DNA of 24,331 nucleotides. Source: Clostridia bacterium (lineage in GTDB: Bacteria; Bacillota; Clostridia; UMGS1883). Positions 3,036-18,088 of this stretch are shown in pieces (within the stretch, counting starts at the first letter, position 1; every line of letters starts with the position of its first letter). Location of the stretch: the NCBI GenBank assembly GCA_051866635.1, contig JBJDXJ010000061.1, forward strand, positions 1-24,331. Reading direction: 5' to 3'. Both the position numbers and the translations under genes were made by a program. Below the pieces are notes generated by a model that did not search any database, was not told where the DNA came from, and was given only the letters and a program-made list of their open reading frames with translations.

Positions 3036-3160
3036 GCAAAGTCCTCCAATCCTCACTATTCATATAAATATCTATCCTATATTTAATCACATTTCCCATC
3101 TAAAATCAAGTTGAATTTTCCACAAACTATCATATTCTTTCCTTTACCTTTTTATAACGC

Positions 3161-3210: not shown

Positions 3211-5307
3211 TTATTCAGCTTTTACAAGCTTCCACCTTACATAGCCCATACTTTCATCACCCTGACAGAAGCCGTCTTTGCTCTTTGTCAGTGAAAGTCC
3301 GCTGTGTCTCACTTTAAGTGTATAGGTGCTGTCGCCGTTATTTTCAAGCATAAAGTGCTGATTTGTTCCGCCTGTCACAGAGTAAAGTATTGCACTTGCA
3401 CCCTTTTCAACACTGTTACCTGAAATATCAAACACCTTGCCTGTTTCCTTGTGCTTAATAAGGAACAAATTCTTGTCAACAGGCACAAAATTCCATAAGT
3501 CGCCATCATTTGAAAGTGTTATTCCCACACCTTCTTCAAAACCAAGCTCTTCTTTTGTAACTTCAAGAACAATTTTATAATCTCCTCTATAGAAGATTTC
3601 TTCCACTTCATCAACTTCAAGAATTAAATCTCCTGACAATGAAGCTGTCATGTCCTCATTAATTGTAAAGCCTGTAGCACTTTCCACTATCTTATAACCT
3701 TCATCGCCGCTCTTTAAGCCTATTGAAGTACCATCACCTAACGTAAGAATTGAATTGTCCAATGTCAAATATCTGCCTGTAGCCTTGTTACGGACAATAC
3801 TGCTTCCTGCCTTGCGGCTGTAAATCTCCCAAGTGTACCAATCGGATGCGGCACTACTCATATCTGTAAATATAATCTTTCCGTCAACATCTCTCATGTA
3901 CTTACCGTCACGACTGAAGGTTACGCACACGCTCTTGTCATAATCGCCTGTAGCCTGCTCAATTTTTTCGTACTCATCCTTATATTCATCGTAAAATTCG
4001 CTATCCACCGCATACAAAAGAGCCTTGTATGCCACGGTTCTTGCAGGGTATGTATTTTCAATAGCTTCAATTCTCGACTCATCGCCCTTTGCAAGAAGGT
4101 AAAGTCTTGAAAATTCAGCCAAATCCTCCCAACGGTTTGTTTTGCCGTAGCCTGTCACAGGCACCATATCCTGTGCAATTGCTCTGTACCACACATCGTT
4201 ATCCTGTCTGCCGTTATCCATTACATGTCCTAATTCGTGGGCAAACATCTGCACCATGTTGTTAACATCACCGCGGTAACCTGTGTTATTCCAGATTGTG
4301 CCGTCACCGCCATTCCAGCTTGCAGTATTCATGCTTGTGTATATAAATCTCCAAAGTGACTTTGCAACAGGCATTTCAAAGCAAGCCACCGCTTCACCTA
4401 CAACTGCCGCATATTCTTCGTCATTGTCGTAAGGAGAATAATACAAGAATACATGTGAATCCCCATTTTCAGTATCTGTAATTGTAACGTCATAACGTCT
4501 TGCTTCTTCTTCTGGAATACCGTGCCAGCTCTGCCATATATTTTCTTCTATACCCACATATTCAACTTTTATATCACGCTTAAGCTTTGTAGCCATAGAA
4601 CCGTACATAAGGCTTGTGGGTTCCACAGTAAAACATTCTTCAACAAAAGCTACCTGTTCGTCATAAGAAAGATTGAAATAATCTCTCTCATCAATCATTT
4701 TTTCAACCTTATCATAAGTTAAAAGGTTAAATTCACCACTGGAGAGCAAAAAGTCACAAAGTCTGCCGTAACGGTATTCGCTAAGGCTTTTTGCTGCATC
4801 ACTCTCAAGCATTTTTTCAACAACAGGTTCGTATTTATCAACAACATCAATCTTCCAGAGCTGATTTTTTTCTTCGTCCTTTACTTCCTGGGTAATAACC
4901 CCTTCACTTTCAGTCATGTAAAGGTCTGAAAATACGGACTTAATGTAATAATAACCATCCTCCGCTTCTTCTATCATCCAACGCTGATTATTTGCACCTG
5001 TGCTTGTCCACTGAATAATTGTAACACCTTCAGCCTTTGATGCACCGTTTACGTCAGCAGCCAAATCGCCTTCACCTATAAAAGCATAACTTCCGCCAAG
5101 GAAAGCCTTTAACCTCCAAGTTCCATCTTCTTCCCCCACCGTGAGAGCATTACCTCTTTCATTGCCGGAAGGAATAAGATATCCGTTTACGTTTTCAATA
5201 GTGCAGATTGTATTTTTCAAATCTGCCTCCTGTGCACTTATGGGAAGTGCCATGCACACAGACAAAGATAGTGCCAAGGCTAAAATAATGGACAAACATT
5301 TTTTCAT
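3211..5307 (-). CDS. Secreted protein: ricin-B (CBM13-like) lectin domains flanking a zinc metallopeptidase domain
   Basis: Signal peptide MKKCLSIILALALSLSVCMALPISA; ricin QxW repeats (IIQW..GANNQRW, NQLWK; C-terminal GGTNQHF); central AHELGH with downstream YGKTNRWEDLAE. Confidence 0.75.
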   Translation of the reverse strand: MKKCLSIILALALSLSVCMALPISAQEADLKNTICTIENVNGYLIPSGNERGNALTVGEEDGTWRLKAFLGGSYAFIGEGDLAADVNGASKAEGVTIIQWTSTGANNQRWMIEEAEDGYYYIKSVFSDLYMTESEGVITQEVKDEEKNQLWKIDVVDKYEPVVEKMLESDAAKSLSEYRYGRLCDFLLSSGEFNLLTYDKVEKMIDERDYFNLSYDEQVAFVEECFTVEPTSLMYGSMATKLKRDIKVEYVGIEENIWQSWHGIPEEEARRYDVTITDTENGDSHVFLYYSPYDNDEEYAAVVGEAVACFEMPVAKSLWRFIYTSMNTASWNGGDGTIWNNTGYRGDVNNMVQMFAHELGHVMDNGRQDNDVWYRAIAQDMVPVTGYGKTNRWEDLAEFSRLYLLAKGDESRIEAIENTYPARTVAYKALLYAVDSEFYDEYKDEYEKIEQATGDYDKSVCVTFSRDGKYMRDVDGKIIFTDMSSAASDWYTWEIYSRKAGSSIVRNKATGRYLTLDNSILTLGDGTSIGLKSGDEGYKIVESATGFTINEDMTASLSGDLILEVDEVEEIFYRGDYKIVLEVTKEELGFEEGVGITLSNDGDLWNFVPVDKNLFLIKHKETGKVFDISGNSVEKGASAILYSVTGGTNQHFMLENNGDSTYTLKVRHSGLSLTKSKDGFCQGDESMGYVRWKLVKAE

Positions 5308-5343: not shown

Positions 5344-5372
5344 ATTTTATAATTGCAGAATTTATTTGTCAA
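5344..5372 (-). promoter_or_regulatory. SigA-type promoter of the lectin/peptidase gene
   Basis: TTGACA (5372-5367), 17 nt, TAAAAT (5349-5344); AAGGAG SD downstream. Confidence 0.8.
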
Positions 5373-5380
5373 CATAAAAA

Positions 5381-5812
5381 TTACAATTCATCTACAAACT
5401 CATATTTAACATCCATATTACAAGGAATAGCCGCCCTTACCTTCCACTTATCAAAATTTGGTTCTTCAAGGGTAGTTCTAAAGGTAAAGGTCATGGTTTC
5501 TCTGTCGTAGGAAAGGTCAAATCTCCTTTCTTCAAACCAACAAGTGAGAATACTTTTCATTACACTTAAAGTCAGAACATAATGTCGTTGCAAATACCTT
5601 TTAACTGCTATACTACGGTCAATGCTTGAATAATCATTAACCATATCGTTCCATTTAGTTTCACTGACACTGTCAAGATATATTTCACTTAACATATCCC
5701 TTATATCACCCATAAATATATCTATTAATTGCTGCTGAACATTTGCAATGGTCTGTATTTCTTTAAACTCCCTAAGATAATCAGGATAATTTTCAAGAAT
5801 TGTCCTTTTCAT
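5381..5812 (-). CDS. Baseplate wedge protein (XkdU/DUF2313-like), short
   Basis: Follows and overlaps the baseplate J gene; N-terminal YPDYLREFKEIQ and C-terminal AIPCNM resemble this family. Confidence 0.65.
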   Translation of the reverse strand: MKRTILENYPDYLREFKEIQTIANVQQQLIDIFMGDIRDMLSEIYLDSVSETKWNDMVNDYSSIDRSIAVKRYLQRHYVLTLSVMKSILTCWFEERRFDLSYDRETMTFTFRTTLEEPNFDKWKVRAAIPCNMDVKYEFVDEL

Positions 5813-6842
5813 TTATCGTCACACCACCCACCAGTTGATTTTCCTTCAATGTAATGCGATTTGGTTCACCGTTAATGGAAATAACGTTAACATCCGTTGC
5901 TCCCAATCCGAAGAAGTAATCTTCAATCACTCTGTCCCTTAAAACAATCCTGTCTTGTTTATCCCATGTTTTATTAAGTTCTTTTAAAATCACAGGCAAG
6001 TAGGTTCTTGCCTGTCTGAGATACCCTTTTGTCTTACTTGCAGGCTCCAACTCCAGAACAATGTCAATATCAACCATTTCAACGGATTCCACCGTAACGC
6101 TGTGTCCTATGGGCAAAAGTCCTGTCCCCTGACCGCTTGTTTCTTCAGGGTCCAAAGTCTCCTTCACATATTTAACCAGTTCATCAGGTGCAACAGAGTA
6201 GTCAGAGCTTGTAATAATAACCTTTACCGTACCTATCCCGTCTGCTACAGGGACAACCCTTATGCCTCCCACATTGGCAAATGACTTTATAGCATTGCGG
6301 TAATAGGCAATGTTTGCCGCACACACAGGATTGCGTAATTGTTCTATATATCTTTCCCTGAAAGTATCATCATCCTCAACATCTTCACCCGGTGAAATAA
6401 TCTTTGTAATACTCATGATAGCACTGCTTTTATCAACCTTCGCCATTACCTCTCCTATATATTCATTTCCCTTAATACCGGGGGTCTGGCACTCCGCAAG
6501 GTAGTAATCGTCATTAACGCTTATAACCACATACTCACAATCCGATGTATAAAAAACATCTCCCTCATTATAGCCTGTATCCCCCTCAATTCTCACAATA
6601 GCTTTTGTGGCAGCTTTTCTTTCAACCCCAAGTATTGCGGCAGCCTTGTCCATATATGTTCCGGATGCAGTAATAACAAAAGCATTATTCTCTACCTCTT
6701 TAACATTAGAATAAGCATCGGCTAAAGCAGCAGCAAAGGCTGATGTTGTTATATATGCAAGGGAGCCTTCTCTTTTGTCTATATCGTCCCCCATTCGGTA
6801 AAAACAAATTCTCATTATGTCATCATAAGTCCTGGCCTTCAT
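5793..6842 (-). CDS. Baseplate J-like protein (XkdT/gp47 family)
   Basis: IDKREGS, TASGTYMD, GEDVEDDDTFRERY, GIGTVKVII, GLLPIGHSVTV; position in the tail module. Confidence 0.9.
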   Translation of the reverse strand: MKARTYDDIMRICFYRMGDDIDKREGSLAYITTSAFAAALADAYSNVKEVENNAFVITASGTYMDKAAAILGVERKAATKAIVRIEGDTGYNEGDVFYTSDCEYVVISVNDDYYLAECQTPGIKGNEYIGEVMAKVDKSSAIMSITKIISPGEDVEDDDTFRERYIEQLRNPVCAANIAYYRNAIKSFANVGGIRVVPVADGIGTVKVIITSSDYSVAPDELVKYVKETLDPEETSGQGTGLLPIGHSVTVESVEMVDIDIVLELEPASKTKGYLRQARTYLPVILKELNKTWDKQDRIVLRDRVIEDYFFGLGATDVNVISINGEPNRITLKENQLVGGVTINEKDNS

Positions 6843-7235
6843 TTACGCCACCTCCGTTTCGTAATCTATAGTTCCGTAAATAGACGACACCTTAAACTTA
6901 ACAGCTATTTTCTTTCCAATCCTACTGAACTCAAAATCTGAAATTGACAGAATTCTGTCATCGCACAGCAGGCTGTCTTCTATGGCATTTTTAATTTTCC
7001 CCATAGCCTTCATATACCCACCATCCAAAGCATCATTGTAATCTGTTCCGAAGGAATGGGGAAAAATCGGATAGCGATATCTTTCAGTTAAAAGTGCAAT
7101 ACAAATTGCCTGCTTTAAAGCATCAACTCCCTCAATCATGCCCCCTATACACTTTTTGTCAAAATCTATTTTAAAATCCTTATCGGGCAGTCTTTCCGTA
7201 CTGCCCATGTATGTCATACTTGTTTTAGGTAACAT
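6843..7235 (-). CDS. Baseplate / sheath-initiator protein (XkdS/DUF2634-like)
   Basis: GVDALKQAI..L.TERYRYPIF..SFG and L.DDRI.SISDFEF; sits just upstream of baseplate J. Confidence 0.85.
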   Translation of the reverse strand: MLPKTSMTYMGSTERLPDKDFKIDFDKKCIGGMIEGVDALKQAICIALLTERYRYPIFPHSFGTDYNDALDGGYMKAMGKIKNAIEDSLLCDDRILSISDFEFSRIGKKIAVKFKVSSIYGTIDYETEVA

Positions 7236-7248
7236 ATTTCAACTCCTG

Positions 7249-7548
7249 TCACAGTTTTGCAAAAGCAATATAACCTTCTCCGCCCTTTTGCCTTAGTAAA
7301 ACAACACCATCCCCGACTTTAAGCCCCTCTTGTATAACGATTGTTCTTTCATACATCCCTATGCTTATGTTACATTCTCTGTATAAAAGGTTATCAGTCA
7401 CACTAAGGAGTTCTTCGTCTAAAATAAGCTGTCCCACTTCTATTTTTACAGGCTCAACGCTTACAACAGTGCCAAATAAAACTTCGCAAGGCATTGATGC
7501 TTCATAAGCTTTCATGGCACATTCTTTTACCGCATCTGCTATATTCAA
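7249..7548 (-). CDS. Baseplate spike-region protein (XkdR/DUF2577-like)
   Basis: FGTVVSVEPVKI and GLKVGDGVVLLRQKGGEGY; synteny. Confidence 0.85.
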   Translation of the reverse strand: MNIADAVKECAMKAYEASMPCEVLFGTVVSVEPVKIEVGQLILDEELLSVTDNLLYRECNISIGMYERTIVIQEGLKVGDGVVLLRQKGGEGYIAFAKL

Positions 7549-8546
7549 TCCAGATTCCTCCCGTCTAAATAAAGGTTTGTCTTATAGAGGTTATTTTCAA
7601 ATATATGCATCGCCTTTTTTACCCGCATATACCCATCCAACGCTAAATCCCCCATACTGAGCCTTACATAAACAGAACTTCCCGGAATTAACTTAGAATT
7701 ACCACGAACCCCCATCAGAACAATTTCACGGTTTATGTGGTTATATTCATCAAGCATGTTCTTAACTATGGATGTATTGTAGTTTCCGCCATCTAATCTC
7801 TTGGATAAAACCAGCGTCCCCCATTTGTTCATGCTTTCTTCATCACTATCTTCCATAATAATAACAGCACCCATTCTTGATGAATTAACATATAACTGTA
7901 TTTTGTTATACACCCCGCTGTCAATTGTATCGGTGTAAACATAGTTTTCAGCCTGTGATGCGTCTATTAAAACATCAGTTACAAGATTATCCTCATTTTT
8001 TAAGGCCAAATATCCGAAATCGTCAAAAACGATATATCTTTCCCCGCTGTTTTTCCTCACATCGTTACACCCCTTTGCCACAACATCCAAAAGAGAAACA
8101 GACTGGCTTGCCATTGGAGAAAGCATCACCTTACACGGGTCAACATCACCTATATTCAAATCGTTCTTTTTTGCAATTGTACGCACAGTTTCTTCAAGGC
8201 TCATAAACCCTCTCTGATAGCACACCTTGTTTTTCATATATCTCATCTGGTCATATGCCACCACGTCAATAAGCCCGTCTTTATCACGGCTTTTTGAAAA
8301 AACATACCCAAAAAAAATCCCTTCCGAACCGAACTTAACACTTACAGCATCCCCTTGGTTGAAGCTTACAACATTATCCTTCAAAACCGTGAACTTAAAT
8401 TTTGACGCACAAAATTCTTCTTTTTCCACAGTGGCTTTCCCCACCAACACAACTGAGTAAACCTTAAGATTGCTCTTTATATAAACCTTAAGCTTTTCTT
8501 CCCCGTTTTCCACCAAAAATACTTCTCTGCTTTTTGTATTATCCAT
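7545..8546 (-). CDS. Baseplate hub protein (XkdQ/YqbQ-like)
   Basis: IFFGYVFSK, VAYDQMRYMKNK, YIVFDDFGYL, YNKIQL, KWGTL; synteny. Confidence 0.85.
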   Translation of the reverse strand: MDNTKSREVFLVENGEEKLKVYIKSNLKVYSVVLVGKATVEKEEFCASKFKFTVLKDNVVSFNQGDAVSVKFGSEGIFFGYVFSKSRDKDGLIDVVAYDQMRYMKNKVCYQRGFMSLEETVRTIAKKNDLNIGDVDPCKVMLSPMASQSVSLLDVVAKGCNDVRKNSGERYIVFDDFGYLALKNEDNLVTDVLIDASQAENYVYTDTIDSGVYNKIQLYVNSSRMGAVIIMEDSDEESMNKWGTLVLSKRLDGGNYNTSIVKNMLDEYNHINREIVLMGVRGNSKLIPGSSVYVRLSMGDLALDGYMRVKKAMHIFENNLYKTNLYLDGRNLD

Positions 8547-8549
8547 AGC

Positions 8550-9185
8550 TTACTCCCTTAACCTCAACACATCTCCGGGATTAATATCATAGGGCGGTTT
8601 AATGGAATTAAGGTTTGCAATATATGTATATTTCTCCCCATCGTCAAAAAACCTCTTGGCAATAATCCATAAAGTATCTCCTTGTACCACCGTATACGTA
8701 TAAGGCACCTCAAGGGTACTGTTTCTCTCAGAGTAGCGTGCAATATTTTCCTCTGATGCAAATTTTGTCTCCACATTTCTGTATTCCGTAAGAACAACCT
8801 TTGCTTTCATATCCATCCCGTTTTCCGCATCTTCAGTTATTGAAATCTCATCCACAACGACCAACATATTTGTAAGATATGTTTTATTTATATCAGGAAA
8901 AGTACGGTAAACATCAAACCATACCGGCTCATTTTTTGCGGCAATAGCGTTTAATGCATCTACAAATTCGGTACCGTCTATAAACTTTTCCTCGTACCGT
9001 GCAAAGGGATATTCACTCATGGGAAGAAGAAGTTCAAAGCTTATCTTCTTAAGACCTTTTCCTCCCACATCCACAACAAAGCTTCCGTCTACAAGATTGT
9101 ATGTTTTATTACTGTTTTTCGTTTCCATCACTATTTTTTCCGGAGCCACGGGAAACAGTACATGGTCAAGATAAAGCATATACAT
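8550..9185 (-). CDS. LysM-domain tail tube initiator (XkdP-like)
   Basis: N-terminal LFPVAPEKI; C-terminal LysM YTVVQGDTLWIIAKRF..INPGDVLRL. Start moved to ATG 9185 after AAGGAG. Confidence 0.9.
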   Translation of the reverse strand: MYMLYLDHVLFPVAPEKIVMETKNSNKTYNLVDGSFVVDVGGKGLKKISFELLLPMSEYPFARYEEKFIDGTEFVDALNAIAAKNEPVWFDVYRTFPDINKTYLTNMLVVVDEISITEDAENGMDMKAKVVLTEYRNVETKFASEENIARYSERNSTLEVPYTYTVVQGDTLWIIAKRFFDDGEKYTYIANLNSIKPPYDINPGDVLRLRE

Positions 9186-9186
9186 T

Positions 9187-9342
9187 TTATTTATTCTCCT
9201 TCCCATCAAGGTAAATATCGATTGCCGCAATTATGAAAGCCTTTTCATTTTTATCCATCAAGGCAAACTGCATAGGCAAAATTTTAAGATTGTGAAGGCA
9301 CCAGTATGCGTAAAGTGCATCACCGTCGCCTTCACTTATCAG
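9187..9342 (-). CDS. -1 frameshift extension (gpT-like) of the tail assembly chaperone, 51 codons
   Basis: Slippery A-AAA-AAC (9348-9342) just before the TGA; the -1 frame reads LISEGDGDALYAYWCLHNLKILPMQFALMDKNEKAFIIAAIDIYLDGKENK*. Confidence 0.8.
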   Translation of the reverse strand: MISEGDGDALYAYWCLHNLKILPMQFALMDKNEKAFIIAAIDIYLDGKENK

Positions 9343-9752
9343 TTTTTTGCTTTTTCTATCCTTTCACTCATCGCAATATCAAACCCGTTAATGCTCTGCA
9401 CCTTTTTTATAAACTCCTGGTACTCTCCGGGCTTGTCAATCAATGCAACCAATAAATCCTCCGGGCTTGTCACGCAGTAGGAATCCTGAAGCGACGCATT
9501 GTACAAAGGCGGAAAAACTACACTTGCCACCGCAATTTTTCTCATATATGCCCCATAATCAAATCTTGTACCCCTGCCCTTTATTTCACGGATACAGTCT
9601 TTTCTTATTGCCTCATCCTCATCTGTTGTAATACTTCTTAATTCCCACATAAGTGCCTCTCCCTTTTCGTCACACAAACTCTTTGTGGCAGGGAAGAACA
9701 CATTTTCCCTCTTTATTTTATTTTCTTTCAGAAAAAGCTCCAATCCACTCAT
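9339..9752 (-). CDS. Tail assembly chaperone (XkdN-like)
   Basis: WELRSIT, ASVVFPPL.NASLQDSY, PGEY, EKAKN end; directly downstream of the tube gene. Confidence 0.85.
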   Translation of the reverse strand: MSGLELFLKENKIKRENVFFPATKSLCDEKGEALMWELRSITTDEDEAIRKDCIREIKGRGTRFDYGAYMRKIAVASVVFPPLYNASLQDSYCVTSPEDLLVALIDKPGEYQEFIKKVQSINGFDIAMSERIEKAKN

Positions 9753-9767
9753 TATCTTACTCCCTTA

Positions 9768-10241
9768 TCAAAGCATGCCGTTTAACGTATCAAATTTTTT
9801 CGGCATCTTAAAATCTTCAAAAGTTCCTGTAATATTTTCGGAAAGATAATCGCCCTCTGCATCAAACTTTGCAAGTATACCTCCGTCAATATTACAACCT
9901 GTAAATACAATTGTCTGGCTTCCGGCATTGGAGGCAGGATCGTAATTGGTCACCTGAATGTCAAAATAAACATCCTCTCCGCTTTCCTTATAGTCCATCA
10001 AAAGCTGACGGAATACAGACTGATTATAATGTGCCTTTCCTTTAAATACACCTGTCCATCCGTTGGCTTTGTTTCCCTTGCCGGTCTGACCTAAAATTGG
10101 TACAGAAGTCTTATTCTTTGTGATTGATGCCTCAAAATTTATCATCTGCATAAAATTGTATCTGTTTGAATTAACAGTAATATAACATTCCGCCAATGAT
10201 GCCGATACAGCATCACTGCCATTCATAGTAATTGCAGCCAT
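9768..10241 (-). CDS. Tail tube protein (XkdM-like)
   Basis: DAVSASLAECY, VPILGQTGKGNK, YFDIQVTN.DP.S, DGGILAKFDA, TFEDF. Confidence 0.92.
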   Translation of the reverse strand: MAAITMNGSDAVSASLAECYITVNSNRYNFMQMINFEASITKNKTSVPILGQTGKGNKANGWTGVFKGKAHYNQSVFRQLLMDYKESGEDVYFDIQVTNYDPASNAGSQTIVFTGCNIDGGILAKFDAEGDYLSENITGTFEDFKMPKKFDTLNGML

Positions 10242-10251
10242 ATAAATCCTC

Positions 10252-11556
10252 CTATTCTAAAGTTGTTGTAATGTAAAGCTGGGCCATGGAATTAATGGGA
10301 CAGATTGCACTTGTAATAACAACACTTGTCTTACTTGTGCCCTTTTCAACTGAAATATCCTCGTCCTTGAAGTTTTCAATAGCTCTCATCTTCTGAAGGG
10401 ATTTTCTATGTTCTACCAAATCGTTCCACAAGGATATTCTTCCCGCTTCATCATTTGGCACAATTCCAAGATATTTTGTCTTGAAAAGGTACGCATCATC
10501 ATATGCAATCTGGTCCACAAGCCTTACAGTCTGGTTTTCACAGAATATTTCTCCCACTTCAGCAGAGGTTGTCACCAAGGAGTTAATATCAGCTAAAACT
10601 CTGTATTCATTGCCAACCTTGTGGAAAACAAACTTCCCCTTCTTGATACATTCCTCCAGCTCGCTCTGGGTATATGTTGCATACAGATAATAATTTCCTG
10701 AATATGCATGATTTACAAGGCTCTTTCCCATCTTACATCCTGCACTTGCCCCTGCCACATACCATACAAGCTCGGCTTCGTTTTTTACGCCTTTAAAAAC
10801 TGCATTATCAACATTTATAACGCCTATATCATCAGCTTCGCATCTGTAAAGCACGCTCTGGAATTTTACGCCTCTATCCTCTCTCATACGCTTAGTGAAA
10901 GCCGCAATGAGGTTATTTACCGTACTGTCCACACTGGCAACTGCCAACACGTTAAAGCTTACGGTTTCTATACAATCCAAAAACTCCTGATAATCTTCGC
11001 CCTTTATAACAGCATCACCGCCGCCTGTCATACCTACAGCACCGCCCGGGGTAAGTGTTGCGGTTTTATCCCATACTACAAAATCATTGTCTGTAAGCTC
11101 GGATGCACTTTGAACAGTCTGTACATCCTTCTTTATTCCGTTATAATATGTGATTACATCATAATACTTACTGTTATCAATATTTCCTGTTACCTTCACC
11201 TGTATGTTATTGCCGCATTTACCACTGCATGCTGCCGTACCGTAACTGTTTGAAGCCTTTACACCGTGGCCTAATCTGTACACGTAAACCAGTGATGCAT
11301 TCTTAAACAAATCTCTCATACCCCGAAGGTTGTCGTGAATACATGAATAGCCAAAATATTTTATACTGTTCTTCCAGAAATCCTCAACAGTAACTGCTAC
11401 AGCTTCATCCTCCTTGCCCCAGCTTAACTCAATGCCGATGGCACACACGCCTCTGTCCGATACCTCTCCGGTGGCACTTGAAGACGAAACAAAATTTATA
11501 TATGTACCGGGCAACAACTTATTATAATTAGTAAAACTGCCTCCGCCCAAAGCCAT
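10252..11556 (-). CDS. Contractile tail sheath protein (XkdK-like)
   Basis: MALGGGSF..NKLLPGTYINF, DRGV.A, VLADINSL, NQTVRLVDQIA.D, PNDEAGRISLW; 434 aa. Confidence 0.95.
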   Translation of the reverse strand: MALGGGSFTNYNKLLPGTYINFVSSSSATGEVSDRGVCAIGIELSWGKEDEAVAVTVEDFWKNSIKYFGYSCIHDNLRGMRDLFKNASLVYVYRLGHGVKASNSYGTAACSGKCGNNIQVKVTGNIDNSKYYDVITYYNGIKKDVQTVQSASELTDNDFVVWDKTATLTPGGAVGMTGGGDAVIKGEDYQEFLDCIETVSFNVLAVASVDSTVNNLIAAFTKRMREDRGVKFQSVLYRCEADDIGVINVDNAVFKGVKNEAELVWYVAGASAGCKMGKSLVNHAYSGNYYLYATYTQSELEECIKKGKFVFHKVGNEYRVLADINSLVTTSAEVGEIFCENQTVRLVDQIAYDDAYLFKTKYLGIVPNDEAGRISLWNDLVEHRKSLQKMRAIENFKDEDISVEKGTSKTSVVITSAICPINSMAQLYITTTLE

Positions 11557-11559
11557 AAA

Positions 11560-11715
11560 TTACACGCATCCTTTCATAAAATTCACAATAATTTCTTCCG
11601 CTTCCAACACTGTGTAAGTTTTATCCTTATCCAATAATGCCTCAATTGCATCAGCATATTTTCTGAATAATTCCGATTTTTTCAGCTCGTCCTTTGTGTA
11701 TCTGTACTCCTCCAT
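11560..11715 (-). CDS. Small 51-aa phage protein upstream of the sheath gene (missing from the ORF track)
   Basis: ATG 11715 after a GAGGTGA SD; MEEYRYTKDELKKSELFRKYADAIEALLDKDKTYTVLEAEEIIVNFMKGCV*; fills the gap between neighbours almost exactly. Confidence 0.8.
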   Translation of the reverse strand: MEEYRYTKDELKKSELFRKYADAIEALLDKDKTYTVLEAEEIIVNFMKGCV

Positions 11716-11719
11716 TAAA

Positions 11720-12139
11720 TCACCTCATTTTTATTTCTATAGTCTCCATCAAAGACTTGTCAGTATCATCACAATCTTTTATAAAAACATCATAAATAGC
11801 AGTAAGCGTCAGATTTCCGTCATTTTTTTCAGCCGAAATCCTCCGTCCGCGTATTCTCTCCCCGTCTTTTTCAATCATACCCATGGCAGAAAACAAATCC
11901 TCCACCACACAGTCACCCTCATACATTTTCGTGTCACTGTCGCTCATGTAATCTACCTTTACGTAAACTCTTAAGAAATATCTGTCCCCTAAAAGTGTTA
12001 CTCTTTCCACATTCTCGCATTGCACAAAAATGCACGGTTTTATAAGGCCTTGCTTTATTTTCTCCGTATATACGGGAATTTTTTCATTCGTTGCCTTTCT
12101 AATGCTATCGTAAAGCCCTTCAATTACCTTCTGAACCAT
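11720..12139 (-). CDS. Tail terminator / completion protein
   Basis: VYTEKIKQGLIKPCIFV..LLGDRY motif; position before the sheath gene. Confidence 0.7.
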   Translation of the reverse strand: MVQKVIEGLYDSIRKATNEKIPVYTEKIKQGLIKPCIFVQCENVERVTLLGDRYFLRVYVKVDYMSDSDTKMYEGDCVVEDLFSAMGMIEKDGERIRGRRISAEKNDGNLTLTAIYDVFIKDCDDTDKSLMETIEIKMR

Positions 12140-12150
12140 AACACCATCCC

Positions 12151-12519
12151 CTATGCGTAGTCCTTTGAAATTTCAATCATCACTTCATTGTGCGACGGAT
12201 AATAATTCACCACACCGCTTTTTCCGAAAACCTTTATTCTGCCACTGCTTTTTACTTCAATAATGCTTCCTTCTTTAACATCGTATTCACTTGGCAAATA
12301 AAGCTTCACCTTCTTACTGACCTTTGTTATCATGTCCCCTTCTTTTGCGGCATTTTCGCCAAATAAATATGCTTTTGCGGACACTCTGCACGGGATTGAT
12401 TTATTGACACACATCTTTATGAAAGTTGTTCTTCCGTTTTCTGTTACTGCCCTTGTTTCATAAATATCACATTCGTCACAGAAAAACTTTTCTGCCGCTT
12501 TCTTTACTTTTCTCACCAT
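12151..12519 (-). CDS. Head closure / stopper protein (SPP1 gp16-like)
   Basis: CDIYE, IPCRVS, KLYLP...VKEGS.IEV, YPSHNEV; follows the adaptor gene. Confidence 0.7.
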   Translation of the reverse strand: MVRKVKKAAEKFFCDECDIYETRAVTENGRTTFIKMCVNKSIPCRVSAKAYLFGENAAKEGDMITKVSKKVKLYLPSEYDVKEGSIIEVKSSGRIKVFGKSGVVNYYPSHNEVMIEISKDYA

Positions 12520-12869
12520 TTTACTCTCCTGAAACTTAGCATTTCTTCTCTTCCCCCGTTTAAGAGTTCATCAATCAGACTCTCCGTTTCTGTCCTGTCA
12601 CGAAAGCTGACCGACATATCGCCTTCAGTAATTGAAGCAATATCATCTTCGCCGTCATTTTCGCAGGACCTTACGGCAAGGAGATATTCTCCCGCCGCAA
12701 GATCTAAAAATACAAACCTTAGTTCCTGGGGAACAGTTTCACAGTTACATGTGTTCATAATGGTGCTCTCTGCTCTCTGCATACTGACAATAAGCTTGTC
12801 CTCATGGTTTTCAGGCACCTCAAATCCCAAATCCCACAATCTTTCTTTCAAATCCTCGCAGTTGTACAT
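12513..12869 (-). CDS. Head-tail connector / adaptor (SPP1 gp15 / HK97 gp6-like)
   Basis: I.NTCN...VP.EL, ASITEGDMSVSF, C-terminal FRRVKW. Start moved to ATG 12869 after AGAGGG. Confidence 0.8.
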   Translation of the reverse strand: MYNCEDLKERLWDLGFEVPENHEDKLIVSMQRAESTIMNTCNCETVPQELRFVFLDLAAGEYLLAVRSCENDGEDDIASITEGDMSVSFRDRTETESLIDELLNGGREEMLSFRRVKW

Positions 12870-12879
12870 ATAATCCCTC

Positions 12880-13836
12880 TTATTCCATGCTGAGGTTAGT
12901 AATAGATGCGTGAAGGAATGAAGGACCGTGAGCCAAACCAATCTGTGAATAAATCTGAATCATATCGCTTGCACCGGTCTTTGCTAACTGTTCTTCAAAA
13001 AGAACACCCTTTTCCGGTACAGCCTGGAATACAGGTGCAATATGTGCAACATCGGCAATTAAAATTGTGTCCTTAGGCATAAATCTGTCCCAGACAACAC
13101 CCATCTTGAAAAAGTCTGTTTCAATCTGATTAATGCTTACACCGCCGATAGTTTCTCTTGAACCCATAGTGGCATTGAACTGATTTGTATAAATATCAGT
13201 AATCATCTGCTTCTGGAATGCAGGAAGGAACATTACCATATTGTCAAAATATGCACCTGCTTCCGCCATTTCTCTGTAAAGGGAATCAAGCATGCTCTTT
13301 GTAAGTAAACCACCTTCTGCATCAATTGTAGTACCTGTCTTTGTAAGCTCAATCAAGCCTCTTGTCTTATTTGCATCAGAGGCACTTGTTGCCTTATTAA
13401 ATACGCCGTTAATAAAGCTGTGTTCCACATCACGTGCCATCTTTACAAGCTTGTGATGAATTTGAAAAGCCTTTTCATCTTCCACAGAATTTGCCATAGT
13501 GCTGTTTAAGCCTGACATATTTCCGCTGTTTGACATCTTCATGTATGTAAGGTTAATAACCTCCTGATGAATTTGCACCACATTAGTTTCCTGCTCACGT
13601 ACAATAAGGCTTGACTGAGGTGCAGACACTGACTTTTCTTCTGAAATTTCAGGCTGAGCTGCCTTGGGATAATCAAAAAGCACCGCTGTAGGAAACTCGC
13701 TTGACGCAGTCTGTCTGCCTCCTGTCAAACCGCCTATCATTGATAATAAAGGTGTCTGCGAGGCATCCGCCGTAAAAAGCTCACCTGCATAATTTGGTAA
13801 ATTCCAACTTGTACCTACTCCTGTTACTACTGACAT
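12880..13836 (-). CDS. Major capsid protein (HK97 fold, DUF5309/SU10-like)
   Basis: WNLPNYAGELF..TPLLSMIGG, TNVVQIHQE, ARDVEHSFING, TRGL, IETDF, LAKTGAS..QIYSQIGLAHGP; follows the scaffold gene. Start ATG 13836. Confidence 0.88.
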   Translation of the reverse strand: MSVVTGVGTSWNLPNYAGELFTADASQTPLLSMIGGLTGGRQTASSEFPTAVLFDYPKAAQPEISEEKSVSAPQSSLIVREQETNVVQIHQEVINLTYMKMSNSGNMSGLNSTMANSVEDEKAFQIHHKLVKMARDVEHSFINGVFNKATSASDANKTRGLIELTKTGTTIDAEGGLLTKSMLDSLYREMAEAGAYFDNMVMFLPAFQKQMITDIYTNQFNATMGSRETIGGVSINQIETDFFKMGVVWDRFMPKDTILIADVAHIAPVFQAVPEKGVLFEEQLAKTGASDMIQIYSQIGLAHGPSFLHASITNLSME

Positions 13837-13904
13837 AAAAAACATCCTTTCTTTTTTTTTAATTATAAATCTATATCAAACTGCCAAAGCAGTTGTATAC
13901 CACT

Positions 13905-14333
13905 TTAAATCAGCATAATTCCTTCCTGTGCCGCCTGCTGTTTTATTCTGATAGCCTCTACACTGTTCCCCTTGCTTCTTGCCTCTTTAAGCCGCATTTC
14001 ATAATCATTTTTAGTTACATCAGGCAACTTCTGTCCGCTTTGATACGGCTCAAAGCTTTTCTTTCCGCTTTCAAACAGAAACCTTGTATCCTTATTCTTT
14101 GTAAGGCTTTCAATCTGGCTTTTTATGCTGTCCATATCCCCATCCTCAAGCAAAGCTCTTACTGCCTTAATGTTTTTGGCTCCCTTATCTCTTAAAATAA
14201 GCTCCACCTGAAAATCCTTTTCAACTTGGGCAACCTTTTCTTCCCAGCTTGTACTTAAGCTGTTAAACTCACCTTCAATTACTTCCGCCACAGCTTCTTC
14301 AACACCCATGGCAATAAGCTCATTTTTGTCCAT
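13905..14333 (-). CDS. Capsid scaffolding protein (Phage GP20-like), short
   Basis: MDKNELIAMGV, GAKNIKAVRALL, SQIESL..FLF; lies between portal and capsid genes. Confidence 0.8.
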   Translation of the reverse strand: MDKNELIAMGVEEAVAEVIEGEFNSLSTSWEEKVAQVEKDFQVELILRDKGAKNIKAVRALLEDGDMDSIKSQIESLTKNKDTRFLFESGKKSFEPYQSGQKLPDVTKNDYEMRLKEARSKGNSVEAIRIKQQAAQEGIMLI

Positions 14334-15702
14334 CTGTACTACCTTCCTTTTTCTTTAATTCTTTCTGTACATCCCTTACCCAAGGGTGTTGCAAAATCAC
14401 TGTCTCTTCGGATAAAATATCCGCACTCTTTATACAGTTGTCAATTGCTTCGCTTTCATTAACAGGGCAGTCACGGTTGAATACTATTTCTGCATCCTCA
14501 TCAATAAAGCATCCGTAACCGTATTCCATCAGGTACTCCTTTGCAAAGCTTGTCAACTTTTTAAATGAATACTGAAATTCTGCCTCAATTTCACTCACAT
14601 CCAAGTCCAAATCGGAAAACATGGCTCTTATCATAAGCTGATTGGGGCTGTTACCCAAGCGGTCATTTTTTGCATCATAGCCCATAGCATTTTCAACCAT
14701 TGCACCTTTTAACATGTCTGCCATAGCCTGATAATTTCCCGCATTGAAATCTGTTGTCAATGCTTTTATATCCCCGGGCGTTCCGTCCACGGTCTTAACC
14801 TTCACCGCACCGTATGTTGACAAATTATGCCTGAATTCACCCAAATCCGTGCCGTCGTAATTCTGAAGTACAAGAATTGTATTTCTCGCATCCTCCTGAA
14901 GACAGTTTTCAAAATCCGACATAGTTTTGTTCAAAGCATCCTGTAAACTCTTTACCCTTGTTATCAAGGGAATTTCCTTTTCATTGTATTTAAACGCAAT
15001 AAGGGGTATTTCTCCCGGATATGGCATAGTATAGCTATGTTGTTCAACCTGGTGAAGTGTACCGCCTTCAAGCTCGTAAACAGTAACCCCTTCTGAAGAA
15101 TATATCTCCACCATTTCTCTCACACATTCTTCCCGTCCCTTATATCCCTCTACACTGTAAAGCCTCACCGCCCTATCCAGCTTTGTATGGTCATAATCTG
15201 ACCAGTAGGCAATAATTTCAAAAGCCGGCAATCTTCTCATTCTCAGTTTCCCTTCATCGTCCGCATAAACATAAAGCCAGCCAATCCCCATGTTAACCGC
15301 ATCACGCATAAGACATTTCATAGTCCTGAAAAAATCATTTCCCAGGACTTCTTTCAAAAGGGATATGTATTCATCATTTTCTCCCTCAATCACAAATTCT
15401 CTCCCCATAAGATAATTAACCTTCTGGTTCACAAGCCTTTGATACTGATTATTTACAATCCTGTTATTAGGCAGGTTTTCAATTTTTCTGAGCTTTCCGT
15501 CTGCACCGATTGCCATTCTTTCACTTTTTAAAATATCATGGTCCCCACGGAAATATCTTTCCCCTTCAATCATCTTCAGTCTTTTTTCATCCTTTTTCCA
15601 CAGTGCAATCTCTGCTTCAAAGAACTCCTTTTCGCTCATGACATACCCGTCACTTGTGATTTTTTCCATAATTCCATCTTTAAAGCGGGTAAAAATACTC
15701 AT
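14320..15702 (-). CDS. Portal protein (SPP1 gp6 family)
   Basis: LPNNRIVNNQY..LVNQKVNYL.G, IPLIAFKYN..E.PL, ILVLQNYDG, LSEETV..QHPWV; 460 aa. Confidence 0.95.
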   Translation of the reverse strand: MSIFTRFKDGIMEKITSDGYVMSEKEFFEAEIALWKKDEKRLKMIEGERYFRGDHDILKSERMAIGADGKLRKIENLPNNRIVNNQYQRLVNQKVNYLMGREFVIEGENDEYISLLKEVLGNDFFRTMKCLMRDAVNMGIGWLYVYADDEGKLRMRRLPAFEIIAYWSDYDHTKLDRAVRLYSVEGYKGREECVREMVEIYSSEGVTVYELEGGTLHQVEQHSYTMPYPGEIPLIAFKYNEKEIPLITRVKSLQDALNKTMSDFENCLQEDARNTILVLQNYDGTDLGEFRHNLSTYGAVKVKTVDGTPGDIKALTTDFNAGNYQAMADMLKGAMVENAMGYDAKNDRLGNSPNQLMIRAMFSDLDLDVSEIEAEFQYSFKKLTSFAKEYLMEYGYGCFIDEDAEIVFNRDCPVNESEAIDNCIKSADILSEETVILQHPWVRDVQKELKKKEGSTDGQK

Positions 15703-15715
15703 ATTTTAACTCCTT

Positions 15716-16432
15716 TTATATATAAAATCCTTCCGCACTCTTATTCATTATTTCATACAGCTTCTCTCCTACCATCTGTGCTATACTGTCCCCATCAAGT
15801 TCAAAATTACTTCTTTCCTCCCTGACTGATTCTACTCTTATTTCTCTTCCTTCTTTATCCCATCTGTCCAATGACAACTCCATCAGTCGTCTTTTTTGTC
15901 CCCCATCAAGCTTTATATCCTCATCTTTTATATATATATCTTCCCCTAAAGGCATCTCCCCTTTTTCTGCCTTTTCAAAAATGCTTTCAGTAACATTTTT
16001 TGAAACTTCAAATATATCCTCCCACTCTTTGAAATCCTTTAAAGCCTCCCATCTGAAATACTCCTCATTTTTCAAATCAAAGCTCTGTCTTTCATATATC
16101 TTTTCGAGGGCTAAATTGGCATCATCCATTTTTGCACTATCTGTTGTTGTGAAAAGATTATTTATAAAAGCTTCACTTAACAAAACCTCCTGTGTTTCTG
16201 CATCTTTTTGAAGATATGTATCTACGGCATGTTCCTCTCCCAAGAAAGGTTTCATCACCGAATTACTATTTTGAAAAGCACTGATATTTTCCCCGTAATC
16301 CGCATCCACATTCAATATTGAAGTAAGCCTTCTTAAAATATCATCTTCTTTAAAAAAGATAATTCTTGCCTCAAAATTGAAAAACAGCATAAGGTTTTCA
16401 AATATTTGTTCCCACTCACAGCTCTTTCCCAT
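15716..16432 (-). CDS. Acidic 238-aa protein; putative miniature tape measure protein
   Basis: ATG 16432 after AAGGAGG. The C-terminus (IKDEDIK...EIRVE...ELDGDSIAQMVGEKLYEIMNKSAEGFYI) resembles, from recall, tape-measure C-termini of Xkd-type clostridial myophages. Confidence 0.55.
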   Translation of the reverse strand: MGKSCEWEQIFENLMLFFNFEARIIFFKEDDILRRLTSILNVDADYGENISAFQNSNSVMKPFLGEEHAVDTYLQKDAETQEVLLSEAFINNLFTTTDSAKMDDANLALEKIYERQSFDLKNEEYFRWEALKDFKEWEDIFEVSKNVTESIFEKAEKGEMPLGEDIYIKDEDIKLDGGQKRRLMELSLDRWDKEGREIRVESVREERSNFELDGDSIAQMVGEKLYEIMNKSAEGFYI

Positions 16433-16442
16433 CTTTTCCTCC

Positions 16443-17693
16443 TTAAAATGAAAAGTTTTCTCCTTCCTCAATAGCCTCCATACCGTAACGCATGGCATCC
16501 ATCAGATGATTATATTCATCCTTAGGTCTGTTAATTTCATTCCCTATCTCATCCGTATCCCATGCGTAATTTGATATTTCTCTTATAAAATTCTCACAAC
16601 AAGGCTTTATGATAATTTCATATTCACGTATTTTGTCAATTCCGTACCGCACACTGTCAGGACCTTTTTTCGCACCTCTTATTCTCTCAAGCCCCAACTG
16701 CCTTAAACGGTCAATACTCTTCGGCTCTGCACTGTCTGCCCTTATTCTTTCCTTTCCGTAACCCTTACGGGTTATTCTCCGGTAAATTTCATCGTTACTT
16801 AGCCCCTTTTCATATATCTCGTCAAAAACATATATCTTTTTATTTTCCACATCTGTCAGACCGCAAAAAAGTGCCGTTGGGTCATTGACATACCCAAAAT
16901 CAAGACCGAAAACCGTCTTAATATTTTTATCCTTCACAATCTCTGCCACATCAAAATCCTTCTCACACCACCTGTCATATACACAGCCACGGCTTATACC
17001 CCACTCTCCCAATCCTGCTACCTTATATCGTGCAGGGTTTTTTTCTTTCATAACTTCAAACAGCTTTCTGTCTGACTCGTCCAAAAATTCATTGCACAAA
17101 TAATTGGTAGTCATTTTAAGGGTATCAGCCCTTTCTTCGTCAAAAAACCTCTTTTTCAACCAATGGTGTTCGTTCCAAGGATTAAATGTCAGTGTTATCT
17201 GTTTAAAAAGCCCCTCCTCCGAAGCACCTCTTATGGATTCATCAAGCATATCAAAATGGCTTTCATCATTAATTTCATATGCTTCTTCAATCCACATCCA
17301 GCAAAGGCATCCATAGCTCACGGTAATACTCGTCACCTTCATAGGGTCATCAAGTCCTCGAAAATATATTTTCTGTCCCGTAGGCAAGTAAACAAACTCC
17401 ATAGGTGCCTCTTTAATAAGCCAGTATTCACCTACTCCAAGCCTTTCCACCGCCCACTTCAATTCCTCAAAGCAAGAATTTTTCAGTGTTCTGTAGGTTT
17501 TTCTTATAACCAAAAGATTTGCCTTATGATACTTCATCATATTAACAATGTACCAAAGTGCCGTTGTCTTACTTTTCTTACTTGCTCTGGACCCCTTTAC
17601 CACACGGTAACGCCCCTTAAAATTCCAAAAATTTTTATATCCCCTCCCCACCACATGGGGAAGATAAATTTCATTCTTCAAGGTCCTCTTCAC
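16443..17693 (-). CDS. terL: Terminase large subunit (PBSX family)
   Basis: Walker A region VKGSRASKKS, Walker B WIEEA, TFNPW, nuclease FGLDFGYVNDP, ADSAEPKSI, NHLMDAMRY. Start is GTG 17693 or TTG 17681. Confidence 0.95.
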   Translation of the reverse strand: MKRTLKNEIYLPHVVGRGYKNFWNFKGRYRVVKGSRASKKSKTTALWYIVNMMKYHKANLLVIRKTYRTLKNSCFEELKWAVERLGVGEYWLIKEAPMEFVYLPTGQKIYFRGLDDPMKVTSITVSYGCLCWMWIEEAYEINDESHFDMLDESIRGASEEGLFKQITLTFNPWNEHHWLKKRFFDEERADTLKMTTNYLCNEFLDESDRKLFEVMKEKNPARYKVAGLGEWGISRGCVYDRWCEKDFDVAEIVKDKNIKTVFGLDFGYVNDPTALFCGLTDVENKKIYVFDEIYEKGLSNDEIYRRITRKGYGKERIRADSAEPKSIDRLRQLGLERIRGAKKGPDSVRYGIDKIREYEIIIKPCCENFIREISNYAWDTDEIGNEINRPKDEYNHLMDAMRYGMEAIEEGENFSF

Positions 17694-17973
17694 CGAATAT
17701 CACAACCTTTTTCGCTTCTTCACTCTTTATCCCAAGATATTTCATCAATAATTCCGTCGCTTTAAGGCGGTCCACCGTTTCGATATTTATTCCGGAAGGT
17801 GTTGTCTTTATAGTAGTTATAGCCTTCTTTATATCATCGGGAAGCTCATCAAAACTTTTCCACCTGATTTTTTGTTTTTCATTTTCATACACAATGTCCG
17901 CAAGGTCAGCAGGCGATGTAAAAGCAAATGCCCCAAGGAGCTCGATAATCTTTTTCTTACTTATTCTTGTAAT
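17671..17973 (-). CDS. terS: Terminase small subunit, N-terminally shortened (100 aa if started at ATT 17973)
   Basis: IIELLGAFAF.SPAD, DRLKATELL.KYLG, acidic tail VVIFGEEDLEE overlapping terL. AAGGAGG lies 7 nt before an in-frame ATT; the track's TTG 18051 has no SD. Confidence 0.75.
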   Translation of the reverse strand: MTRISKKKIIELLGAFAFTSPADLADIVYENEKQKIRWKSFDELPDDIKKAITTIKTTPSGINIETVDRLKATELLMKYLGIKSEEAKKVVIFGEEDLEE

Positions 17974-18059
17974 CCTATCCCCTCCTTCGAAAGGAATAAT
18001 AGCATGAAGTCTTGTAGCATTTCGTCCCCAACTATTTTGAATTTTTTTCAAAAAAACTC

Positions 18060-18088
18060 TTGCAATACTTTAAAACCTATGGTATAAT
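18060..18088 (+). promoter_or_regulatory. SigA promoter of rpmE
   Basis: TTGCAA (18060-65), 17 nt, TATAAT (18083-88) with TGn extension; A/T tracts upstream. Confidence 0.85.

Follow-up and report, generated by a model that had tools for sequence, protein, structure and literature searches.

Why would a clostridial chromosome carry an unbroken series of DNA-packaging, head and contractile-tail genes that reaches from one host promoter region to the next and includes no gene for integration, replication, regulation, lysis or fibres? We addressed this question for an operon in a contig of a Clostridia bacterium (NCBI GenBank assembly GCA_051866635.1, contig JBJDXJ010000061.1, 24,331 nt; henceforth the window, i.e., the whole stretch of DNA that was analysed). 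The window is one whole contig (C61) of a 2.33-Mb, 63-contig metagenome-assembled genome (MAG) that is 96.6% complete. A reading of the bare nucleotide sequence (the original prediction) had described the operon as a domesticated, DNA-packaging, myovirus-like particle that is more reduced than PBSX and is not a tailocin, and had put it forward as a candidate gene transfer agent (GTA). As a genomic inference this description is well supported by the analysis reported here. We consider it probable that the operon represents a defective prophage of the PBSX/phiC2-like myovirus type that was domesticated long ago, has been inherited vertically at one site and has kept a DNA-packaging particle with a miniaturised tape measure. 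It is a good candidate for a GTA-like element rather than a decaying prophage; we use “GTA” as a candidate label, and a GTA-type function is plausible from what the genomes contain. Throughout, G000 denotes the window's genome, other G numbers related genomes and L numbers fetched loci; gene families were named by PHROG and Pfam scans.

A packaging and tail operon between two host genes

The open reading frame (ORF) listing gives 19 co-directional open genes on the minus strand, in an unbroken series of ~12.6 kb that runs from terS (17973) to a baseplate gene (5381), and the PHROG and Pfam names agree with the terS-to-baseplate series that had been predicted (the -1 frameshift extension of xkdN is not part of the 19 and is counted as an extra). 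The operon sits between rpmE and a host lectin gene, and host genes with their own promoter-like sites abut either end. Specifically, 86 nt separate the terS start at 17973 from the rpmE promoter-like site (TTGCAA-17-TATAAT, 18060-18088, plus strand), and the promoter-like site of the next host gene (TTGACA-17-TAAAAT) begins at 5372, 8 nt past the operon's last base at 5381, so that both boundaries are as tight as had been stated. The interval from rpmE to the lectin gene is taken up entirely by genes of the packaging, head, neck and tail classes; in line with the original prediction, PHROG and Pfam scans detected no integrase, replication, lysis, fibre or repressor/activator gene in the locus. 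No flanking direct (att-like) repeats were found around the operon, no transfer RNA (tRNA) gene at the locus, no Rfam match within the window, and no paralogs of the 19 operon proteins elsewhere in the G000 genome. The operon had also been called intact, which is true of its reading frames but not of its gene set: the canonical tape measure gene is missing, and the minor-head and Neck1 genes are absent (see below).

Distribution, inheritance and selection

We found a tail sheath match in 12 of 41 related genomes, all in three genera (g1, 10/10 including G000; g2, 1/1; g3, 1/1), and in none of the other 29. Matches to the major capsid protein (MCP) occurred in the same 12 of 64 family genomes and in none of the 52 genomes of genera g4-g7. 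The clade consists of uncultured Clostridia/Oscillospiraceae MAGs of herbivore-gut origin, with goat, roe deer and water buffalo gut among the sources. Ten fetched loci have the same gene order and the same flanks wherever the contig reaches, with rpmE beside terS in seven and the lectin gene after the last gene in nine; in the remaining one (G011), glutamine synthetase directly follows the operon, without the lectin gene. Three IMG/VR contigs carry a further variant of the element with the same flanks, rpmE and the lectin gene. The expectation that the operon would recur beside rpmE in relatives was thus borne out in every locus whose contig reaches that far, and the same structure in 10 independent MAG assemblies and three IMG/VR contigs answers the concern, raised at the outset, that a misassembly might hide something larger.

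The original prediction had also named patchy presence, with empty sites in close relatives, as an outcome that would speak against domestication. All 12 clade genomes carry the element, and no empty rpmE-lectin site was seen inside the clade. Eight outgroup loci (g4, g5 and g7) have the type III glutamine synthetase gene (GS-III, a flanking host gene) with neither rpmE nor the element within the 6-12 kb fetched upstream; because synteny differs, no clean empty site is definable in the outgroups. GS-III identity is 79-88% within the clade and 50-62% outside it, and from this step it follows that the element marks a well-separated clade. Gene lengths are conserved, and only one of ~200 gene copies checked is frameshifted, namely the tube gene of G009.

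The G009 copy (locus L022) has a single frameshift that splits the tube gene and may be an assembly error or a real inactivation. Two other apparent irregularities, a short adaptor in L015 and a short xkdP in L017, proved to be start-picking artefacts rather than truncated genes. L017 was also excluded from alignment A3 because of a masked stretch. A second MCP match in G006 (C6, about 60000-99800, L073/L074; 59-63%) was set aside as a different phage-like region, with a 1239-aa ORF, that has only the capsid in common with the element.

Selection was estimated as the ratio of non-synonymous to synonymous rates (dN/dS) by the Nei-Gojobori method, taking medians from non-saturated pairs for 18 operon genes. 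This set excludes copies shorter than 60% of the longest one, the two-piece tube gene of G009 and the gene for a 238-aa protein (discussed below), the middle of which is unalignable; terS was covered only from canonical starts. Between species, the median proportion of synonymous differences (pS) is 0.60-0.80, i.e., saturated, and that of non-synonymous differences (pN) is 0.09-0.51. The median dN/dS of the 18 genes nevertheless ranges only from 0.056 to 0.367, with 0.056 for the tube, 0.073 for terL, 0.074 for the MCP, 0.084 for the portal, 0.152 for the sheath and 0.367 for the XkdU-like gene, next to 0.049 and 0.136 for the flanking host genes GS-III and lectin, respectively. All 18 genes tested are therefore well below 1, as had been anticipated, and instead of the neutral evolution or pseudogenes that had been considered as a contrary outcome we observed purifying selection with one frameshift among about 200 copies.

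Trees of 14 concatenated element proteins and of rpoB, built without G001, G003 and G005 (no usable rpoB) and without G008 (no full element locus), share the groups (G010,G011), (G000,G002) and (G007,(G006,G009)). Composition is similar in element and host (G+C, 0.392 vs 0.403; G+C at third codon positions, GC3, 0.378 vs 0.365), and codon preference correlates with that of the host (r = 0.81). Taken together, distribution, synteny, selection, trees and composition therefore exclude neutral decay, repeated independent integration and misassembly; one old acquisition, vertical inheritance and subsequent selection on the whole module are strongly supported.

A tape measure lost from its usual place

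Related phage-like loci have the gene order chaperone, a 61-68 aa -1 frame extension ORF, a 615-911 aa tape measure and a LysM protein. The long tape measure gene between chaperone and LysM protein is missing in all copies of the element. Here, the interval from the XkdN-type tail assembly chaperone (9339..9752, minus strand; PF08890, E 7e-41) to the XkdP-like LysM baseplate protein (8550..9186, minus strand; PHROG, Pfam) measures 112-156 nt in 10 of 11 loci and 426 nt in G011, and only the frameshift extension lies inside it. In the window this extension (the “T” part, 9187..9363, minus strand) lacks a start codon of its own, and the LysM gene starts right after it, where related phages have the tape measure. 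The extra sequence in the 426-nt xkdN-xkdP gap of G011 (locus L018; ~150 nt in the others) is without a long ORF.

Searches of the G000 genome with PF10145, the phiMMP01 tape measure and phrog_1068 gave no match to a tape measure elsewhere, and tblastn, hmmsearch and phmmer searches with 13 chaperone-LysM gap ORFs from 11 related loci returned only noise (two of the 13 queries were LysM proteins and matched the operon's own xkdP). Despite this, the slippery heptamer A_AAA_AAC (9342-9348 in the window) and the -1 extension ORF are kept in 11/11 loci, with 23 invariant columns. In an HMM-HMM comparison (hhalign), the chaperone extension matched the equivalent ORF preceding the 737-aa tape measure in L045 with 99.3% probability (E 1.8e-20), which clearly points to homology between the two extensions.

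A candidate for the missing function lies elsewhere in the operon. An ORF with a strong Shine-Dalgarno (SD) site occurs between terL and portal in 10/10 loci spanning that interval and encodes 196-311 aa where fully read (238 aa in the window, 15716..16432, minus strand). Both ends of the protein are conserved (MGKxxEW at the N-terminus), and between them lies an acidic, hypervariable middle. In the nearest viral relatives terL directly precedes portal, so that this gene represents an element-specific insertion. With its own last 42 columns, its alignment matched the last 42 of 11 related tape measures (hhalign; probability 86%, E 5e-6). A profile search covering 1.84 billion representatives yielded 60 matches at E <= 0.001, of which 52 had E <= 1e-10, and all 52 were short (153-472 aa). 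Four long matches (671-727 aa), which aligned at their extreme C-termini, all belong to the phrog_1068 tape measures (E 6e-70 to 4e-179); likewise, the short family member P0047 matches phrog_1068 positions 665-705 of 706. The 238-aa protein itself has no Pfam or PHROG match and shows no full-length similarity to the phrog_1068 type. These alignments suggest that the terL-portal gene is likely a relocated derivative of the tape measure, cut to about a quarter of its length, and a tape-measure C-terminus carried by this gene would explain why the frameshift extension is conserved although the canonical tape measure is missing. In turn, that conservation lends indirect support to a ruler role in which the extension would bind this protein.

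Under the usual length rule, a miniaturised tape measure implies a short tail. Ruler proteins account for ~0.15 nm of tail per residue, so the tail would be roughly 30-45 nm long if the ruler rule holds for this protein. A link between the length of the tape measure gene and that of the tail is described in PMC1796659.

Two further observations concern this gene. The mini tape measures of L089, L090 and L091, from three IMG/VR samples, are nearly identical; what distinguishes them is one small indel plus several substitutions within the acidic middle, which suggests within-species variation. Separately, five termite-gut Oscillospiraceae loci (L034, L040 and L048, together with L094 and L097 from IMG/VR) have a related capsid (64-67%) in an unusual gene order: capsid, adaptors and chaperone precede a short ORF of 251-351 aa that bears a tape-measure C-terminus, and terminator, sheath and tube come last, after the baseplate genes. 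These loci may represent another reduced or rearranged element.

The small terminase and the upstream motif

No ATG, GTG or TTG occurs between a conserved upstream motif and the terS coding region. Instead, a conserved GGAGG is followed, after 5 nt, by a non-canonical start, which is ATT in 7/8 loci and ATC in 1/8. Read from this start, TerS has 153-161 aa in 6/8 species and covers Terminase_2 profile positions 2 to about 132. In G000 and its sister G002 it has 100 aa (17671..17973, minus strand, in the window, with ATT 5 nt after the SD sequence GGAGG) and covers only positions 61-135 of 141, without the N-terminal helix-turn-helix (HTH) part. The alignments thus indicate that the DNA-binding N-terminal part of TerS was lost by an in-frame deletion in the G000/G002 sub-lineage only. 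A different reading, in which all TerS orthologs have 100-137 aa and lack the HTH, was dropped, as it came from counting only ATG, GTG and TTG starts. Given a TerS without a DNA-binding domain, sequence-independent headful packaging of host DNA is expected in G000, as in PBSX and GTAs.

The upstream motif, GGGACGAAATG, lies together with an extended -10-like TGnTATTAT at 17995..18027 (minus strand) and could be the operon promoter or a regulator site, with a poor -35. As it precedes terS in 8/8 loci reaching that region, it is a candidate regulatory site of the operon. Other motif-like copies in G000 were rejected as promoters because they lie inside coding sequence. At about 28935 and 32940 of contig C34 of G000 (minus strand), for instance, two near-identical coding stretches ~4 kb apart contain a motif-like sequence and represent a duplicated gene.

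Remaining genes of the operon

All remaining genes are on the minus strand and are given in the order of transcription. The large terminase gene terL (16443..17693; Terminase_3 with an RNaseH-like nuclease; PHROG, Pfam) is 69-78% identical in relatives, with dN/dS 0.07. The portal (14320..15702; PHROG, Pfam) is SPP1 Gp6-like. It is followed by a short scaffold gene of 142 aa (13905..14333), which matches phrog_194 positions 103-210 of 335 and, under the Pfam cut-off, Phage_scaffold positions 83-161 of 170; its counterpart in L099, the nearest viral relative, has 218 aa. The MCP (12880..13845; PHROG, Pfam) is of the SU10 type and is 83-91% identical across species (mean column identity, 91%). 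Next come a head-tail adaptor (12513..12869; PHROG phrog_132), the likely start of which is residue 25 of the listed ORF (orthologs have 113-118 aa in 8/10 relatives), a second head-tail adaptor or closure protein (12151..12519; PHROG phrog_615) and the tail terminator (11720..12139; Pfam PF20765).

A 51-aa conserved phage protein (11560..11715; PHROG phrog_966), present in 10/10 relatives, precedes the contractile tail sheath (10252..11556; PHROG, Pfam; 63-70% identity in 11 relatives) and the tail tube (DUF2001; 9768..10241; PHROG, Pfam; 77-92% identity, with the one frameshifted copy in G009). After the chaperone and the LysM protein, the baseplate genes encode a YqbQ/XkdQ-like hub protein (7545..8546; PF24032, E 7e-65), an XkdR-like DUF2577 protein (7249..7548; Pfam), a gp25-like sheath initiator (6843..7235; PF10934) and a Baseplate_J wedge protein (5793..6842; PF04865). 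The XkdU-like last gene (5381..5812; 143 aa) matches phrog_521 positions 30-177 of 534; it is an ORF of 141-152 aa in 11/11 loci and, with 22-30% identity and dN/dS 0.37, the fastest-evolving alignable gene of the operon.

What the element may be

Only genes for building and filling a particle have been retained in the operon, and the set that encodes a DNA-filled head and a contractile tail is sufficiently complete for selection to act on it as a unit. The locus also has the genomic hallmarks of a GTA, i.e., a chromosomal, phage-derived packaging and structural cluster without replication, integration or excision genes, inherited vertically under purifying selection. We propose the following scheme for how such a module could work. 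A host factor acting at the conserved upstream site would activate the operon, and TerS would be made at a low level from its ATT start. TerL and portal would then fill small heads by a headful mechanism that, in G000/G002, would not involve recognition of a sequence by TerS. The chaperone, together with its -1 product, would load the mini tape measure onto the baseplate hub, upon which a short tube and sheath would assemble; the particles would be released by some lysis function, and the fast-evolving mini tape measure and XkdU-like protein would meet the target cell. Under this scheme, particles may be made and may carry host DNA, and they may either deliver DNA to target cells or kill them.

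A more specific version, which we advance tentatively and think somewhat doubtful, is that the element is a contractile-tailed GTA of gut Clostridia that evolved independently. Its tail ruler would have become small and been transferred to the packaging module, so that tails would be stubby, and both the ruler and the outer baseplate protein would be diversifying fast between species. Loss of the TerS DNA-recognition domain, a step typical of GTAs, would be in progress, having occurred in G000/G002 while six other species keep the domain.

Several findings weigh against these readings. As to domestication, the predicted match between element and species trees holds for most groups, but G004 is placed differently in the element tree and in the rpoB tree (support 82/84 vs 90/90). 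Likewise, the predicted host-like codon usage is seen in G+C and GC3, but relative synonymous codon usage (RSCU) still distinguishes the element from its host, at a distance from the host mean of 0.338 compared with 0.157 +/- 0.041 for random host gene sets, 0.8% of which are as far. As to the particle, the Neck1/tail completion (phrog_5) and minor head (phrog_115) genes of L099 are absent from the operon. In the G000 genome, which is 96.6% complete, the few holin families tried (PF05105, PF04688 and PF10779) had no match, phrog_521 matched nothing besides the operon's own XkdU-like gene, and the queries tried revealed neither an unlinked fibre or activator gene nor a further copy of the upstream motif ahead of a gene. 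As to the tape measure, the assignment of the 238-aa protein draws on ~42 C-terminal columns (probability 86%), with the rest lacking detectable similarity; this rest combines acidity with hypervariability, an unusual trait in a ruler protein, and an AlphaFold2 model (9 sequences) was uninformative, with a mean predicted local distance difference test score (pLDDT) of 37.9 and 62-73 in the C-terminal helix only. Finally, the TerS HTH is retained in 6/8 species, so that TerS offers no clade-wide argument for sequence-independent packaging.

Neck1 was also searched for beyond the operon, and phrog_5 had no match anywhere in the G000 genome. The minor head family phrog_115 gave two short partial matches there (C19:6535-6675 and C38:218092-218310; profile positions 268-316 and 268-354), both outside phage-like clusters.

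Among the alternatives, the one that fares best, although we hold it to be unlikely, is a PBSX-like killer particle, i.e., a headed tailocin in which the contractile tail acting on competitors is what is selected and the packaged DNA is an undelivered by-product. There is precedent in PBSX, which is described as packaging 13.4 kb of host DNA, not injecting it and acting as a tailocin (PMC12946183). The tube, sheath and baseplate genes are under purifying selection, and the two fastest-evolving genes (mini tape measure and XkdU-like) are those that would be expected to meet the target cell. However, the locus has no fibre or receptor-binding gene, none was found elsewhere in the genome with phrog_521, and the constraint on TerL, portal and MCP (dN/dS 0.07-0.08) equals or exceeds that on the tail genes, a pattern difficult to reconcile with heads as a by-product. 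A killer particle shares the domestication part with the explanation we prefer, and the genomic findings do not separate it from the GTA reading. Were the element only such a particle, it would still show that uncultured gut anaerobes have domesticated an entire virion over the long term.

That the locus is a functionless cryptic prophage remnant in decay is very improbable. Most of a prophage is indeed gone, including the genes for integration, regulation, replication, lysis and fibres, the full-length tape measure, Neck1 and the minor head protein, and the G009 tube gene has its frameshift. Against this, the 19 frames are open at saturated pS (0.60-0.80) with dN/dS of 0.06-0.37, the boundaries are identical in three genera, and the frameshift signal is kept in 11/11 loci. 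We give just as little credence to an active temperate phage or satellite (of the type of capsid-forming phage-inducible chromosomal islands, PICIs) that integrates repeatedly at an rpmE hot spot and relies on helper functions. Three IMG/VR records do class fragments of the element as viral, and satellites too are described as carrying reduced structural modules (10.64898/2026.07.08.737213). However, those IMG/VR contigs include the host flanks rpmE and lectin gene, the locus has its own tail genes but no integrase, replication gene, att repeats or tRNA, and the element is present in 12/12 clade genomes versus 0/52 others in the family, with a tree that largely follows rpoB. In the features that define capsid-forming PICIs the element thus differs throughout: it has no integrase, replication or excision genes, it has its own tail module and it is fixed in its clade. 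An assembly or binning artefact hiding a full prophage, conceivable in that the window makes up a whole contig of 24 kb in a MAG of 63 contigs, has a negligible probability, given that both junctions lie inside the contig and recur in 10 other MAG assemblies (two on 245- and 405-kb contigs) and three IMG/VR contigs.

Comparison with known systems

PBSX of Bacillus subtilis and PBSX-like elements of Bacillus resemble the domesticated prophage that we propose. They are defective, myovirus-like and chromosomal, are conserved within their host group and have genes for terminase, portal, capsid, sheath and tube. The genes of the PBSX late operon also come in the same order (Terminase_2/3, SPP1 portal, sheath, DUF2001, XkdN, LysM, YqbQ, DUF2577, gp25-like and Baseplate_J); here PBSX was compared by family names, not by sequence, and we assume that its gene names belong to these Pfam and PHROG families. 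Unlike PBSX, which has its own repressor/activator, lysis cassette and fibres beside the late operon, the element is without regulators, lysis genes and fibres in cis, its TerS lacks the HTH in G000, and no tape measure lies between xkdN and xkdP, the 238-aa derivative being placed between terL and portal instead. The element is also smaller, ~12.6 kb versus 28.7 kb given for a PBSX-like region (PMC8347963).

The nearest viral modules, homologous gene for gene, are those of L099 (an IMG/VR contig; MCP 63%, TerL 65%) and of the Clostridioides phages phiMMP01 and phiC2 (XkdN 38%). Unlike in the element, their TerS has 170-230 aa and begins at a canonical codon, portal comes immediately after terL, the scaffold has 218 aa, minor head and Neck1 proteins are present, and a 762-911 aa tape measure is encoded between chaperone and LysM; phiMMP01 has fibre genes as well. 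R-type tailocins and extracellular contractile injection systems share sheath, tube and baseplate with the element but are without terminase, portal and capsid, whereas in the element terS, terL, portal, scaffold and MCP are present and constrained.

GTAs of the RcGTA type (Alphaproteobacteria) are likewise vertically inherited, purifying-selected head-tail clusters without replication or integration genes, with a TerS of reduced DNA recognition. By description they are set apart by an unrelated origin, a non-contractile tail, another capsid and terminase lineage, and known regulators and accessory loci. Within the same wider group of gut Clostridia, FpGTA of Faecalibacterium is described as a GTA-like structural operon that is near-ubiquitous in its genus, with other functions off the main operon and, as in the G000 element, a TerS without an obvious DNA-binding domain (PMC12946183). 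According to the same description, on which the distinction is based, FpGTA is podovirus-like, with ten ORFs and a second operon for baseplate, fibre, holin and endolysin (PMC12946183); the element, by contrast, encodes a sheath, a tube and a complete contractile baseplate, and the families tried revealed no second locus.

GTA-like packaging of 4.6-8.9 kb of host DNA is reported to be common in gut Ruminococcaceae, Oscillospiraceae and Christensenellaceae, in that gut virus-like particles often carry short, evenly spread pieces of host DNA from these families, and PBSX and FpGTA are the only Gram-positive gene clusters for such packaging named in that account (PMC12946183). A murine study proposes further candidates among gut Clostridia, which its text leaves without firm clusters (10.64898/2026.07.08.737213). 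We found no published description of the element or of a relocated mini tape measure in the literature searched, supplements not included. The locus offers a concrete, clade-wide candidate cluster of a third morphotype, with head and contractile tail. It also offers a natural experiment in which a tape measure was apparently cut to about a quarter of its ancestral length and moved; its variation from species to species (196-311 aa) could serve to test the ruler rule in a contractile system, and sister lineages with and without the TerS DNA-binding domain are available for comparison.

Host genes flanking the operon

The divergent flank rpmE (ribosomal protein L31; 18154..18354, plus strand) was named from its translation, without a family scan, and is 91-100% identical beside terS in seven relatives and L090. 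Beyond it lies a MerR-family regulator (window 18690-19142, minus strand) with no match in any of 10 related loci, and therefore not a conserved neighbour of the element. On the other side lies the lectin gene (3211..5307, minus strand; translation, Pfam), the product of which is a secreted ricin-lectin protein of 698 aa. The gene has a promoter-like site of its own; it comes after the operon in 9/10 relatives and is absent in G011. It is followed by GS-III (glnN; 942..3056, minus strand) and, further along, by a small RelA/SpoT-type protein. In G012, which is without the element, a 37% identical lectin homolog adjoins GS-III, and the lectin gene therefore looks like a host gene older than the insertion. 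The lectin protein has ricin-type lectin domains at both ends, a central HExxH motif and a weak match to the Botulinum_HA-17 lectin domain.

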